This document shows positions 28,769 through 63,821 of a stretch of DNA of 64,000 nt, piece after piece. The position numbers and the translations under genes are program-made. The notes beneath the pieces are model-generated. The model saw nothing but the letters and a program-made list of their open reading frames with translations, searched no databases and was not told the origin of the DNA. Source of the DNA: a virus; IMG/VR virus record IMGVR_UViG_3300001305_000002, positions 29,340 through 93,339 of that record; one strand, 5' to 3'. How positions within the stretch are numbered: the first letter of the stretch is position 1; every line of letters begins with the position of its first letter.

Positions 28769-29408
28769 GATGTTCCTTTCGTTGATGTGTGAGCTTAGCC
28801 TAGTACATCAAAGCAAGTGTGTCAAGTAGAAGTGTGGCCACGGATCTTGACATCATCCTAAGAAGGAATCCGCTCCCCTGCCACATCTACCGGCTTGCGG
28901 ATCTCACATGGAGAACACTATCACACGGCAGCTCAAAGAGATAGGGCTGGACACATCTTTTAAATGTGCTGAGATATCTCTTTAGTAATTAATCATATCA
29001 AGAGTATCCGCAAAGTCAGGCTCAACTTCGTCAAGCTGCATCAGAATGATGTGCTTAGTAATAACATCACCATTACGGTGAGCCTGGAAAAGAGCATTGA
29101 GAAGGTCAATGTAAGTAACCATAATTAATTCTCCATTCACGAATGATTATGACATAAAACTGATTAACCGTGAGGTTATCATTGTACTCTTAGCCCGATT
29201 TGATCGGACAGCCTCACGCCATTCATAAGAGCCTAAAACTTATTAATCTTTCTTTTTGCTAGACTTTTTATCAAGACCCGCAATGCTGCGAGCAAGATCT
29301 CTTTGCTTTTTCTGATCTTCAGGCAAGATCTTGCTCGCAGCACGCTCTACTTTTCTTTGCTCTACTCTACGTCCTCGACTCTTCATACATCAGAGTCTAA
29401 CAGCAACC

Positions 29409-47588: not shown

Positions 47589-48179
47589 CTAGAAAGTATT
47601 GTACTGAGTGTTTCCGTTACCATACTGAAAACCGCGAGAATTAGTAATGTCAGGATAATAGTTTTTTACCCATTTAAGCATACGCATTTCTGTTCTTGCA
47701 TCATCTAGTGCATGATGAACTAATTCACCAGGCTCCCGTAGATCAGGAATAGTAGGATTTCCCCTTCGGAATACTTCTTGCTTTATGTCATTAGTCCACA
47801 TAGGCACAAAGTCAGGAAGATTAACCATTGCACCAAAAAGTTGACCTAGACAGACATGATCGTAAGCAGAATACCATCCCCATAGCTCTAAAGCAGAATC
47901 CTGAGATGCTTCATGTAGGAAATCAAATACTTTCCCACGAATGGCTAGATTACTCTTGAATGTTTCTGTACCTTCACCGACAACTAGAGAACCATCGTTG
48001 GTACAAGTAAGAATAGGTAGCACATTAGCTTTAAGCCAATCATGCTTATAGATATCACTCCAAGGAGCTTGAGCAAATTCATAATACAACTCTGCTCCAT
48101 CTTCACGAACCATTCCTACAGAAATAGGATAAACTCCATTCCCAGCTTCAAGGAATTCCCAGTCGTGCGTTACAATCAT
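47589..48179 (-). CDS. DEDDh 3'-5' exoribonuclease, RNase AS/Rv2179c-like
   Basis: HDWEFLE, ISVGMVREDG, WYSAYDHVCLGQLFG, HHALDDAR. Confidence 0.85.
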   Translation of the reverse strand: MIVTHDWEFLEAGNGVYPISVGMVREDGAELYYEFAQAPWSDIYKHDWLKANVLPILTCTNDGSLVVGEGTETFKSNLAIRGKVFDFLHEASQDSALELWGWYSAYDHVCLGQLFGAMVNLPDFVPMWTNDIKQEVFRRGNPTIPDLREPGELVHHALDDARTEMRMLKWVKNYYPDITNSRGFQYGNGNTQYNTF

Positions 48180-60517: not shown

Positions 60518-60602
60518 TTAAGATCTCAATCTGTTAGAATAAAAAAATGCCTTGCTGTTAGTCACTACTCTAGCAAACTAACAGCAAGGCGTCAAGCATA
60601 AA

Positions 60603-62210
60603 TCAGAGACGACCAGCAGAGAAATCAGCAATAACTCCAGGAGCATTGCTATCAAACCCTGCTACGTTCATGATTCGCGCATCGTCAGGGTCTCCAACAG
60701 TAAAAGGTGTAGCACTAACACCAACTACGACAAGCTTAGCATCAATACCCATCTTCTGACGGTAATCCTTAAGAGCCTTGTTGACCTTTACAGGACCAGC
60801 CCAAGTCTCATTATCAGTATAAACCTGGAAGGTATCAACTTCTACTTTGTTATGAAGTGCCCATACCATAGGCTGAGCAATATCAGTTCCACCAAAAGCC
60901 TGACCAGTAACCTTTCGATTAACAGTAGCCAGATCCATCTTAGCAGAAATACCTAGGTCACGGAATTGTGTTGAGAATCCCATAACCTGATACCAAGGTT
61001 CAGTACGAGCTGAAACCATAGCCATCGCAGCACTTACCTGCGCACAGCTCAGATCAATACCTACAGCATCCTGACTCATAGAGCCAGAAACATCCAGAGC
61101 AAGTAGAGTACGCTTATTAGCTGGAGTAATGTTCTTGAATGCAGCATGGAAACCTTCATCTAGAGCATCAGCAATAATAGGATTAGTTACCCAATCCTTC
61201 TTACGACCATTACTCCACATGCTAGTGTAACCATTACCACCAAAACGCTGTAGCTGACCTTCAGTGTGAGTTACAGAAGCTAGAAGATACTGGATCGGGT
61301 GAAGACGAGTCTTCGCAATCATGTCAGAATCAGTTAGCTTAGCTGCAACTGCACGGGTAAATAGCATATCGTTAAACGCACCCAGACGAGCTAGGCGAGT
61401 AATGTTACGAACAAGAGCCTGACCGTTAAGCTGGTTATTGATGAATAGCTTAACCCATACATCCTTTTCCTTCAGGAACTCGGTAGGAATAGCTTCCCAA
61501 GGAAGATTCTTATAACGATCAAGAGTAGAAATAACTTCTGAAGTAGAAGTAGCTAGTTGCATAGTCTGGAAACCATCAATAATATCTCCACCAGGATTAG
61601 TTTCATGCCCAAGAATGAAGCCGCCTACACGCTGATCAATTCCAGTAGGATGAGATAGACGCATAGTATCACGAAGAGTCCAACCATTACGCTGACGGTA
61701 CTTAACAGCCTGGTATGCAAGCTGCTCAGCAGTCTTAGACTCAAACCACTTAGCAACTGCACGACGCTTTGCACGACCCCAACCACCAAGACTTTCAATG
61801 AAAGCAGCAAGCTGATAGACATGAGTAGCAATACGTACTACTGAAGGAATAGCATTAACAACTTCTGCCTTGAATTCAGCAGGAGCATCAGTAAGAAGCA
61901 GAGCCATAACGAAAATAGCAGCCTCGTTACGGTATGCACGACCCTGGTTAGATACCTCAACAGCAGTAGCAAGAACAGTCGCAGGATCAGCAGCAATCAT
62001 CTCACGGATGAAGTCAACATTCTGCTTAGTAAGGTCATACTCATTAACGTAATAGGTACCCTTATCAGTTCCTAGAATAAGGAATCGAATAAGACGATCA
62101 ACATCAGACACTTCATAAACGTACCCACCAGCGTTGTTCTTAACCTCACGAGGATTAGAGCGAACAGTCTGAGGAATAGGAGTTGAAGTGTACTTAGATA
62201 GTGCGGACAT
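60603..62210 (-). CDS. rsr: Ro60/Rsr TROVE-domain RNA-binding protein with vWA domain
   Basis: NNAGGY, RFLILG, AVKYRQRNGW, HPTG, HPIQYL, MIDAS LALDVSGSM, GGTD, VYTDNET, VAGFD; GGAGG RBS favours ATG 62210. Confidence 0.95.
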   Translation of the reverse strand: MSALSKYTSTPIPQTVRSNPREVKNNAGGYVYEVSDVDRLIRFLILGTDKGTYYVNEYDLTKQNVDFIREMIAADPATVLATAVEVSNQGRAYRNEAAIFVMALLLTDAPAEFKAEVVNAIPSVVRIATHVYQLAAFIESLGGWGRAKRRAVAKWFESKTAEQLAYQAVKYRQRNGWTLRDTMRLSHPTGIDQRVGGFILGHETNPGGDIIDGFQTMQLATSTSEVISTLDRYKNLPWEAIPTEFLKEKDVWVKLFINNQLNGQALVRNITRLARLGAFNDMLFTRAVAAKLTDSDMIAKTRLHPIQYLLASVTHTEGQLQRFGGNGYTSMWSNGRKKDWVTNPIIADALDEGFHAAFKNITPANKRTLLALDVSGSMSQDAVGIDLSCAQVSAAMAMVSARTEPWYQVMGFSTQFRDLGISAKMDLATVNRKVTGQAFGGTDIAQPMVWALHNKVEVDTFQVYTDNETWAGPVKVNKALKDYRQKMGIDAKLVVVGVSATPFTVGDPDDARIMNVAGFDSNAPGVIADFSAGRL

Positions 62211-62229
62211 TAAATGCCTCCATGTAGAT

Positions 62230-62367
62230 AGAACGAATATATTAGGCACTGACGAAAAATTGCCGCTGCCTCTACCGTTGGGCTACACACTCATTTATCA
62301 CAAGCGGACAGGATTCGAACCTGCACTTTAGCGGATGGAAGATAATCGTACAGTTTCGACTCGTTCT
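62230..62367 (-). ncRNA. YrlA-type Y RNA 1 (Ro-binding stem plus permuted tRNA module)
   Basis: Terminal stem AGAACGA/TCGTTCT, GAGTCGAA...GATTATCT motif, then T arm GCAGG-TTCGAAT-CCTGT before D arm TAGCCCAACGGTAGAGGC. Confidence 0.85.
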
Positions 62368-62375
62368 GAGTCAAG

Positions 62376-62494
62376 TGCGGCAATCAGGAATCGAACCTGA
62401 TTTTCGAGGTAAGCTTAGCACACCTAGTACTTGTACGTCTACAAGCTATTATGCGCAGCCTATGACACTTACCCTAGTCTATTACCAGAGCCGC
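62376..62494 (-). ncRNA. tRNA-like RNA with about 55-nt expansion in place of the anticodon loop
   Basis: GCGGC/GCCGC acceptor, GGTAAG/CTTACC stem closing the insert, T arm TCAGG-TTCGATT-CCTGA. Confidence 0.55.
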
Positions 62495-62522
62495 AAGGTG
62501 CCTCTGTTACGAGGCGTATTAC

Positions 62523-62705
62523 TTAGAACCAACGATCAAGAACATACTGAATATCGATGCACTTTTTCTGTGCTTCTTTTTCAGCAGCTATGTTAATTGG
62601 CGTAGAATCTTTTTGCCTTCTCTTACGTGCGTCAGCATAAGCATCCCGAGCATCTTTAAGTGCTTTCAGTGCCTGCTTTTTGCTATTATAATTATAAGTT
62701 GCCAT
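62523..62705 (-). CDS. Small basic hypothetical protein inside the Ro60/Y RNA locus
   Basis: 60-aa ORF, AAGGA RBS. Confidence 0.6.
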   Translation of the reverse strand: MATYNYNSKKQALKALKDARDAYADARKRRQKDSTPINIAAEKEAQKKCIDIQYVLDRWF

Positions 62706-62713
62706 ATCAATCC

Positions 62714-62872
62714 TTAGTTAAAGAGATTAGCAACAGCCTGAGCGTTGTTTACAGCTTTTTCTAGGTTCTTAATGGTAGCAGCACTAGCCTTAGCCTTTTT
62801 AGCTGCTGCGAGATCAGCCTTAGCTTGCCTTAGAGTTTCAAAAGCTTCATCACTTGAAGTGTGTTTTGGCAA
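62714..62872 (-). CDS. Small Ala/Lys-rich protein inside the Ro60/Y RNA locus
   Basis: Hand translation MPKHTSSDEAFETLRQAKADLAAAKKAK...; AAGGAG RBS, TTG start. Confidence 0.55.
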   Translation of the reverse strand: MPKHTSSDEAFETLRQAKADLAAAKKAKASAATIKNLEKAVNNAQAVANLFN

Positions 62873-62915
62873 CTTAACTACTCCTTATTTTGGTGTAATG
62901 ACAAAAAAAAATAAA

Positions 62916-63050
62916 GCTGTGAGCATATAAGTAGAAAACGAGGTTTTCCGTGCGTCCACTACACTTAGTCTGCATGAAGTGCAGACTCTAGGATTCGAAC
63001 CTAGCCTGGTCTTTTAGCATAAGATAATCGTCTTCAATTCGGCTCACAGC
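62916..63050 (-). ncRNA. YrlA-type Y RNA 2
   Basis: 9-bp terminal stem GCTGTGAGC/GCTCACAGC, GAGCCGAA...GATTATCT, T arm CTAGG-TTCGAAT-CCTAG, closed acceptor-like hairpin AGTCTGCA/TGCAGACT, D-like arm GTGT-AGTGG-ACGC; T tract follows. Confidence 0.88.
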
Positions 63051-63053
63051 CAG

Positions 63054-63127
63054 TGTCTTTGACAGGAATTGAACCTGTAACTTAATCTGGTTAAAATCCA
63101 GCGCTTTGCCTGTTAAGCTACAAAGAC
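63054..63127 (-). ncRNA. Atypical tRNA with 4-bp anticodon stem (Lys-UUU register; UUA if read in canonical numbering)
   Basis: GTCTTTG/CAAAGAC, CTGG-ATTTTAA-CCAG, ACAGG-TTCAATT-CCTGT. Confidence 0.6.
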
Positions 63128-63133
63128 ATATGA

Positions 63134-63197
63134 TACGAACATAAATTGATAATGGGTGTTATTCCAGTCTAAGATAACCCAAAATCTTCGGCTCGTA
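63134..63197 (-). ncRNA. Short Y RNA 3 (Ro-binding stem only, no tRNA module)
   Basis: TACGAGC/GTTCGTA terminal stem, GAGCCGAAG...GGTTATCT motif. Confidence 0.7.
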
Positions 63198-63212
63198 TTT
63201 AAAAAGTTTTAA

Positions 63213-63327
63213 GTTTGGACATGAGGTAGGATTCGGAAGTTCTCTCCGTAGAGAGTTGTTGGATTTGAACCAACTAAATTAATTTTCAATAAATTATTTT
63301 CGATAACCGAATCCAATCGGCCCAAAC
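63213..63327 (-). ncRNA. Y RNA 4 (T arm and hairpin, no clear D arm)
   Basis: GTTTGGGC/GTCCAAAC, GGGCCGAT...GGTTATCG, GTTGG-TTCAAAT-CCAAC, CTCTC-TACG-GAGAG. Confidence 0.75.
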
Positions 63328-63336
63328 AAAGTTTAA

Positions 63337-63510
63337 TCAAATATCAAATTCACCATCTTTTACACCAGCAACAAATGATTTCCATTCATTGTGAGTGTAC
63401 ATTACCATATCACCACTAACATCTCGAACAGTAACGAGATGATTATCGATCTTAACTTCTACACAAGTAGTATTACCGCAATATGATGATGTAATATATT
63501 CATTTTCCAT
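63337..63510 (-). CDS. DUF397 family small protein
   Basis: SSYCGNTTCVEV...VRD...THNEWKSFVAGVKDGEFD. Confidence 0.8.
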   Translation of the reverse strand: MENEYITSSYCGNTTCVEVKIDNHLVTVRDVSGDMVMYTHNEWKSFVAGVKDGEFDI

Positions 63511-63511
63511 G

Positions 63512-63583
63512 TAGCCCGAAAGGGAATTGAACCCTTCTCGCAAGATTGAGAATCTTGAATTCTAACCACTAAACTACCGGGCC
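63512..63583 (-). tRNA. tRNA-Glu(CUC)
   Basis: GGCCCGG/TCGGGCT, CAAGA-TTCTCAA-TCTTG. Confidence 0.85.
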
Positions 63584-63821
63584 ATTAAATGTCAATAAGC
63601 TACTCGTAAATCCGAGGTATACACTTTTAAGCAGGCTTGCCGCTTACTGACAAGATTTACTCTACAGCATCAAACTGAGGTTGTCAACTTATGACTTGCC
63701 GAAAAGTTTCTTTAGTGTAGTTGGCTTATCTTGATCTCGTTTAGTGCCACAATTCCAGCACTTCTTAGCATCTTCGCGTACCTCAACACTACAATGAGTG
63801 CATTTCCAATGTTTCCACATG

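Follow-up and report, generated by a model that had tools for sequence, protein, structure and literature searches.

Which RNAs serve a Ro60 protein that is encoded by a phage? The question is raised by a locus in the IMG/VR virus record IMGVR_UViG_3300001305_000002, of which we analysed positions 29,340 to 93,339, a stretch of 64,000 nt that we call the window and to which all coordinates refer unless another record is named. A Ro60 gene lies on its minus strand, and a sequence-only reading had described four stem-closed elements upstream of this gene as an array of four architecturally different Y RNAs. In bacteria, the tRNA-like Y RNA YrlA is bound by Rsr, the bacterial Ro60, and YrlA has been reported in 22 phages including mycobacteriophages (PMC4201824). 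We put the probability at roughly 0.8 that the four elements, here E1 to E4, belong to the actinobacterial YrlA/YrlB kind of Y RNA and partner the Ro60 that the phage encodes, a figure that covers the whole explanation including its mechanism. Their identification as Y RNAs is well supported by the shared motif, the architecture, covariation, exclusive same-strand linkage to Ro60 and recovery by a model built from bacteria alone. The five features at issue are, from the gene outwards:

60603–62210, minus strand: Ro60 (Rsr) gene, 535 amino acids, with its ATG at 62210, the ribosome-binding sequence GGAGG at 62221–62217, 6 nt upstream, and DVSGS as the MIDAS (metal ion-dependent adhesion site) motif.
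62230–62367, minus strand: E1, YrlA-type, 138 nt, with a 9-bp lower stem; ends 8 nt before the Ro60 ribosome-binding site.
62915–63051, minus strand: E2, YrlA-type, 137 nt, with a 10-bp lower stem and an 8-bp upper stem; starts 2 nt after a tRNA-Lys gene.
63133–63198, minus strand: E3, YrlB-like, 66 nt, with a handle and one plain hairpin and no tRNA module.
63213–63327, minus strand: E4, Y RNA, 115 nt, with a handle and an upper stem of 8 bp, then an A/U hairpin, a T arm and a hairpin capped by UACG; a D arm is lacking.

Judged by its domains, the phage protein is a canonical Ro60 with the features of the TROVE family, a TROVE domain and a vWA domain with the MIDAS motif DxSxS. It matched Pfam TROVE (1.3e-31) and vWA_Ro60 (5e-60) as well as the RNA-binding protein family PHROG 850 (1e-90). 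It aligned over its full length to Deinococcus radiodurans Rsr (2NVO, E 4e-108) and to Xenopus laevis Ro60 (1YVP, E 2e-83), and DVSGS aligned with the same motif in 2NVO (alignment residues 12–534).

All four elements follow a common plan. A terminal helix of 8–10 bp is followed on the 5′ side by a bulged C, GA, 1–3 nt and an upper helix that ends exactly at UUAUC, where a variable body begins. On the 3′ side, the 3′ strand of the upper helix leads into a short loop ending in AU and then into the 3′ strand of the terminal helix. The helix sequences vary among the four copies and the pairing is kept. E1 to E4 thus all have the general Y RNA handle, namely a stem that pairs the ends and a bulged helix with GNCGA or GGUCCGA on its 5′ strand.

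The bodies differ. In E1 and E2 the T arm is followed by a closed acceptor hairpin and this in turn by a D arm, the order found in YrlA, with the T-loop UUCGAAU and a GG-containing loop on the D arm. In E1, a 5-bp stem in the anticodon-stem position links the handle to this module, and the closed acceptor hairpin has 7 bp; in E2, the T arm is preceded by a small hairpin in the variable-arm position, termed the V arm by Chen et al., and the acceptor hairpin has 8 bp. The G+C content of both is low (45–46%). E3 and E4 lack the full T arm–acceptor–D arm module and so are not YrlA. The proposed architecture is the free minimum free energy (MFE) structure of E2 (z −4.1) and also the MFE structure of E3 (z −2.8) and E4 (z −4.5). 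For E1, we relied on comparison with relatives because the unconstrained MFE structure differs from the Y-type fold.

A descriptor of the handle (YCGR, 6–11 nt, TTATC, a lower stem no shorter than 7 bp, and AT before the 3′ strand) matched exactly four sites on both strands of the window, E1 to E4, whereas dinucleotide shuffles gave a mean of 0.16 matches and a maximum of 2. This descriptor was composed after the elements had been seen. It found the same four and no others in the whole 108,159-bp genome, and in the independent relative L001 it found six elements, all upstream of Ro60 and on the Ro60 strand. The upper helix, which is not part of the descriptor, abuts UUAUC in 22 of 22 elements from five phages, with a mean length of 6.6 bp versus 3.3–3.5 bp in two controls. 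Seven of the 22 carry CGG where the others have CGA. The sequence-only reading was therefore right about the position and strand of the elements, about a common motif that includes UUAUC and the AU before the 3′ helix strand, and about the modules: T arm, closed acceptor and D arm in E1 and E2, a T arm plus hairpin in E4, and no tRNA module in E3.

To what family do these elements belong? A covariance model, R1, was built from the handle and the conserved body columns of the 22 phage elements. In the window it scored E2 at 94.4, E1 at 77.5, E4 at 59.5 and E3 at 40.0 bits, with the next match at 19.8 bits, and it found members outside its training set in the phages MeganTheeKilla, NootNoot and Trina. 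A second model, R2, was built solely from sequences adjacent to bacterial rsr genes. R2 nevertheless recovered E1 (50.4 bits, E 1e-7), E2 (45.5 bits, E 1e-6), E4 (41.4 bits, E 7e-6) and E3 (29.4 bits, E 1.5e-3), each match spanning model positions 1–124, the full length. At E up to 1, R2 returned nothing in the window beyond E1 to E4, and the whole genome gave a single extra match, which was partial and overlapped a tRNA. The features GGGCCGGAG, UCGGUUAUC and ACAc-GCCC recur in the R2 consensus, which makes UUAUC and AU signatures of the whole family of actinobacterial Y RNAs. Wherever it matched, in five bacterial loci (from Gordonia polyisoprenivorans, Mycobacterium, Nocardioides and Nocardia), the Rfam YrlA model RF02553 overlapped one R1 element per locus, at 37–52 bits, and G. 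polyisoprenivorans is among the species listed by Chen et al. 2014 (PMC4201824). The model matches place E1 to E4 in the same family as the RNAs beside bacterial rsr, including those that Rfam recognises as YrlA.

Covariation points the same way. Homologs of Ro60 were present in 357 phage records. Contigs in IMG/VR encode the closest proteins (identities of 74% and 70%, taken from the best tblastn segment), followed by those of Streptomyces phages of the Gilsonvirus/Samistivirus groups (52–57%), Rhodococcus phage Trina (46%) and cluster C mycobacteriophages (39%). Compared with its counterpart in L001 (L001-d, 2863–2995), E2 has 65% identity with 8 compensatory pairs and 0 broken; E3 and L001-c (2710–2775) have 70% identity and 3 compensatory pairs, and E4 and L001-a differ by 9 compensatory pairs. 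For nine YrlA-type elements from five phages, RNAalifold predicted the lower stem as well as the T arm, the acceptor hairpin and the D arm, and compensatory changes were seen in 21 of the 27 pairs. With MAFFT, the upper stem's 3′ strand fell in inconsistent positions, and the alignment was redone against R1. In this R1-based alignment, 83.9% of the handle cells were paired, versus 58.7% when shuffled and at most 47% when slid, and there were 145 double-change cells versus 51. Bacterial members (n = 106) had 94.3% of cells paired, versus 76% shuffled and at most 46% slid. Covariation across related phages, which the sequence-only reading had named as a check, is present as compensatory changes in the L001 and L086 orthologs.

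The same relatives also differ from the window. L001 keeps its layout, including two small open reading frames (ORFs), but has six elements, and the relative L086 has four elements plus the two small ORFs. The T arm of E4 is missing from the L001 and L086 counterparts. With compensatory changes in orthologs and this T arm absent in relatives, the array is conserved yet still changing.

How unusual is a mixed array of four? The sequence-only reading had implied that it is rare, and the census contradicted this. On whole genomes, R1 gave six matches in the L001 contig, all in the array; eight in MeganTheeKilla, six of them in the array; five in NootNoot; 11 in Trina, all upstream of Ro60; and five in Bxz1, three of them directly upstream of Ro60. 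Among 54 Ro60 loci sampled from IMG/VR (R1, E up to 0.001) there were 168 matches, all 168 on the Ro60 strand. The bacterial sample consisted of 80 rsr loci, mostly from Actinomycetota, collected with an alignment of six Ro60 proteins. R1 matched 203 times in 75 of these loci, nearly always on the rsr strand and mostly within about 700 nt upstream of rsr, with downstream matches in a few loci. The usual copy number was 2–4 per locus, rising to nine in one Chloroflexota locus, and several loci from Nocardia, Arachnia and Propionibacteriaceae had four members of mixed length (e.g., 130, 106, 70 and 135 nt in Nocardia). Judged by these matches, arrays of several differently built Y RNAs (two to eleven) beside Ro60 are usual in phages and actinobacteria, rather than one or two. 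The finding is not a new kind of system.

The census also yielded some observations on individual arrays. That of Trina (L004, NC_042040.1 80854–84546) is the largest phage array found here, and the Trina record annotates a part of it, 84277–84485, as a pseudo "tRNA-OTHER". Two loci from Chloroflexota and Aggregatilineales metagenome-assembled genomes (L082, 6755–8429; L024, 5636–6551) have nine and seven R1 matches, of which 9/9 and 6/7, respectively, lie downstream of rsr. R1 also matched sites about 30 kb away from Ro60 in MeganTheeKilla (MW435853.1 96726–96813, 43.5 bits) and Bxz1 (AY129337.1 96723–96833 and 95735–95853), which are possibly dispersed Y-like RNAs.

How do the elements compare with described Y RNAs? 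At least two Y RNAs per bacterium and four small RNAs upstream of D. radiodurans rsr have already been published. E1 and E2 resemble YrlA in their terminal stem with the GNCGA handle, in the module of T arm, closed acceptor hairpin and D arm that comes after it, and in lying just upstream of Ro60 on the same strand. RNase P cleaves the YrlA of Mycobacterium smegmatis, whose acceptor stem has 7 bp, and CCA is added to it (PMC4201824); the acceptor hairpins of E1 and E2 are likewise 7–8 bp long. The phage locus differs in having two YrlA-type copies embedded among tRNA genes and small ORFs. E3, a long hairpin with a handle and a small loop, and E4, a handle plus T arm, resemble second Y RNAs of the YrlB and Yrn2 type (Salmonella Typhimurium YrlB, M. 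smegmatis YrlB with its T arm, D. radiodurans Yrn2; PMC4201824); both stand beside YrlA-type RNAs upstream of Ro60.

A phage precedent is the Thermus phage phiLo, whose Ro60 was shown to bind host PNPase and the Y-like RNAs Yrl1 and Yrl2, both of which lie upstream of it (PMC12135203). In both loci a phage Ro60 gene is directly preceded by more than one Y-like RNA, and the phiLo RNAs were identified through a CGAA motif and a stem-bulge-stem fold. They differ in that phiLo has two RNAs, and we found no mention of tRNA-like bodies in PMC12135203, where the term "tRNA-like" does not occur, whereas the locus described here has four, which are interleaved with tRNAs and of which two have full tRNA-like modules. 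In the literature that we searched, no phage Y RNA array with more than two members and no interleaving with tRNAs was described, a published mention remaining possible.

With metazoan Y RNAs (RF00019), the elements share a bulged-C helix with GNCCGA on the 5′ strand. The spacing from there to a G(A/G)GUUAUC-like stretch, as in hY1 and hY4, also seems to be common to E1 to E4. The phage elements differ from metazoan Y RNAs in their bacterial-type operon context, their tRNA-like bodies and the lack of Pol III features.

What surrounds the array? The record is a single contig of 108,159 bp that has 41.2% G+C and contains 33 tRNA genes; CheckV puts its completeness at about 80%. A search of public runs found sequence of this phage in soil and rhizosphere metagenomes (DNA), and its source is an uncultured soil phage, an actinophage. 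The further features of the locus are:

60538–60590, minus strand: intrinsic terminator right after the Ro60 stop codon, a 14–15 bp hairpin followed by U7.
62372–62500, minus strand: long tRNA-like RNA; acceptor stem, T arm of 7 bp and short D-like stem; fold z −3.1.
62523–62705, minus strand: small Lys/Ala-rich ORF, 60 amino acids, 36% identical to the L001 ORF 3197–3364.
62714–62872, minus strand: small Lys/Ala-rich ORF, 52 amino acids, with AAGGAG upstream; 67% identical to the L001 ORF 3017–3187.
63053–63127, minus strand: tRNA-Lys(UUU), between E3 and E2 (Rfam tRNA, 54.3 bits; ARAGORN).
63337–63510, minus strand: small DUF397 ORF (Pfam DUF397, 1e-9), between tRNA-Glu and E4.
63511–63583, minus strand: tRNA-Glu(CUC), the upstream neighbour of the array (Rfam tRNA; ARAGORN).
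63659–63687, minus strand: promoter-like site, TTGACA, 17 nt, TAGAGT, from a consensus scan (10/12 matches).

On the minus strand, the order from upstream to downstream is thus tRNA-Glu(CUC), the DUF397 ORF, E4, E3, tRNA-Lys(UUU), E2, the two small ORFs, the long tRNA-like RNA, E1, and the Ro60 ribosome-binding site and start. The tRNA-Glu and DUF397 ORF occur in the same order in L001. Measured from the Ro60 start, E1 to E4 lie 20 to 1,117 nt upstream and share its strand, within the proximity tested for bacterial and phage Y RNAs (4 kb of the Ro60 gene, same strand). For the terminator, RNAfold gave −28.7 kcal/mol for 60606–60520 (minus strand), with the hairpin followed by AUUUUUUUAUU. The promoter-like site could be a candidate start of the transcription unit.

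Two aberrant tRNAs had been noted within the array, and this description fits one of them. The RNA at 62372–62500 is truly aberrant: about 125 nt long, it has a structured insert of about 55 nt in the anticodon-arm position and no Ro60 handle, and neither ARAGORN nor Rfam recognised it. Its alignment with L001 3599–3728 has 78% identity, 7 compensatory pairs and 0 broken. The tRNA-Lys is only mildly unusual, as the Rfam score and the ARAGORN call listed above indicate. Two tiny ORFs had been noted as well, and both were found, Lys/Ala-rich and conserved in two relatives. They are syntenic in L086 (about 4400–4740), so that they lie within the Y RNA array in three related phages. Searches of Pfam and PHROGs with both ORFs returned no family; they could encode small RNA-binding cofactors. 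The features specific to phages are the embedding in a tRNA operon, the two YrlA-type copies, two small ORFs conserved as a pair, and a long tRNA-like RNA that shares the block but lacks the handle.

Elsewhere in the window, a stem-closed element at 9866–9939 (plus strand) sits in a plus-strand tRNA cluster. It has a canonical T arm and an ACAU-stem 3′ end and accounts for the R1 match of 19.8 bits. We rejected it as a fifth member, there being no CGA handle and no R2 match. Neither RtcB nor PNPase was found among the ten proteins downstream of the locus. A 196-amino acid ORF at 47589–48179 (minus strand), in the same genome as Ro60, has an Rv2179c-like 3′-5′ exoribonuclease domain (Pfam 1.3e-8), and one may speculate that it is a phage-encoded partner.

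How would such an array work? The array, the interleaved tRNAs, the two small ORFs and Ro60 would form one transcription unit that ends at the terminator after Ro60. Because the elements abut tRNAs within 0–6 nt, the precursor may be cut into single RNAs by the tRNA-processing enzymes RNase P, RNase Z or RNase E. There is a precedent in M. smegmatis, where one precursor upstream of rsr yields both YrlA and YrlB, which accumulate as discrete RNAs bound to Rsr (PMC4201824). The outer surface of Ro60 would then bind the handle of each RNA, as in published systems, and the variable bodies, that is, the tRNA-like L-shape of E1 and E2, the T arm of E4 and the plain hairpin of E3, might each recruit a different partner. 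Host PNPase or tRNA-elbow-binding enzymes would be the leading candidates: PNPase tethering was shown for D. radiodurans Yrn1 and for the phiLo Ro60 with Yrl1 and Yrl2 (PMC12135203), and Wang et al. 2018, who report a YrlA structure, predict that YrlA has effector proteins recognising the elbow of tRNA (bioRxiv 10.1101/312249). The RNA may also gate access to the Ro60 cavity, and the phage would thereby reshape the decay or repair of structured RNA during infection. An anti-defence role of the phage Ro60 is possible. The idea that Y RNA bodies dock different effectors or act as decoys is already in the literature (Chen et al. 2014, PMC4201824).

Several points weigh against this explanation. 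The strict motif GNCGAA(N0-1)G (Chen et al. 2014) is present in E3 only, as GCCGAAG; E1 (GUCGAAAC), E2 (GCCGAAUUG) and E4 (GCCGAUUGG) retain only GNCGA. The YrlA-type fold of E1 lies 4.3 kcal/mol above the MFE and so is not the MFE structure. The alignments that gave the covariation figures were fitted to the model, which favours structure. Searches of public runs for the array locus returned DNA runs only and no RNA run, and co-transcription, processing and the identity of the effectors are inferred. Finally, RF02553, whose gathering score is 69 bits, gave no match to E1 or E2 at E up to 10.

The Rfam result can be set against known members of the family. At gathering scores, Rfam reported tRNAs only in the window. 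At E up to 10, the sole match to a Y RNA family was a weak one of E4 to RF00019 (15.9 bits; gathering score 38). The match to the YrlA model that the sequence-only reading had proposed as a check is absent for E1 and E2; the L001 ortholog of E1 aligned to the full model at 29.8 bits. Scores elsewhere were 32.5 bits for the Bxz1 YrlA, 45.2 for G. polyisoprenivorans and 41.1 for Mycobacterium, all below 69. The gathering score misses every actinobacterial or phage YrlA tested (24–52 bits; L005, L002, L001, L067, L020, L009, L018 and L079). We do not count the missing YrlA match against the Y RNA reading because accepted phage and actinobacterial YrlA RNAs also fall below the threshold. The threshold does not set actinobacterial or phage members apart, and routine annotation will therefore not report them.

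Might the elements instead act mainly in cis? E1 would then be an autoregulatory leader bound by Ro60 that sets its own translation or mRNA stability, and the other elements would be processing or stability modules of the tRNA operon. The geometry is suggestive: the end of E1 at 62230 is close to the Ro60 GGAGG at 62221–62217, the elements abut tRNAs and each other within 0–15 nt, and there is no terminator-like site within the array on the minus strand. However, the same family occurs at variable distance from Ro60 and, in some bacteria (L024 and L082), downstream of it, the upstream YrlA and YrlB of M. smegmatis accumulate as discrete Rsr-bound RNAs (PMC4201824), and a leader would not need four different bodies. 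We consider a mainly cis-acting role quite unlikely; it is also compatible with the explanation as Ro60 partner RNAs.

A role largely independent of Ro60 is very unlikely, in our estimate. Here the tRNA-like bodies would be decoys or sponges for host tRNA-targeting defences or tRNA-binding enzymes, and the handle would serve stability only. E1 and E2 do retain the elbow sequences of the T-loop and D-loop, the genome has 33 tRNAs and several tRNA-like RNAs, and phage Bas63 has a Ro60-like protein that acts against the defence system ppl (PMC11482910). Yet E3 and many other family members keep the handle and the Ro60 linkage without having a tRNA module, the anticodon loop, which is the target of most anticodon nucleases, is absent, and bacteria carry the same arrays without a phage context. 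That the elements are decaying tRNA-derived repeats or functionless chance hairpins, as a tRNA cluster with aberrant tRNA-like sequences might suggest, is barely credible given compensatory changes in every helix between paralogs, between orthologs and across the 106 bacterial members, viral matches without exception on the Ro60 strand and a chance expectation of 0.16 for the descriptor.

What follows if E1 to E4 are Ro60 partner RNAs? The analysis provides precise coordinates and structures for four candidate partner RNAs of an uncultured actinophage, and with R1 and R2 the family can be retrieved from most of the Ro60 loci that were searched. Cultured carriers of such arrays, namely Mycobacterium phage Bxz1, Streptomyces phage MeganTheeKilla or Gilson, Rhodococcus phage Trina and Nocardia, make it directly testable which partners the different Y RNA bodies recruit. 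A broader and tentative idea, which we regard as unlikely, is that Ro60-linked Y RNA arrays are evolving adaptor libraries in which each member steers the one Ro60 ring towards a different factor of host or phage, and that arrays inside phage tRNA operons gain, lose and remodel tRNA-derived bodies. Examples would be the E4 T arm that is absent in two relatives, array sizes of 4–6 among close relatives, and the Trina matches. If this were true, the adaptor library, the pair of small basic proteins and the handle-less tRNA-like RNA would together make up a phage system dedicated to the takeover of RNA decay or repair in the host, or to counteracting defences that target RNA.

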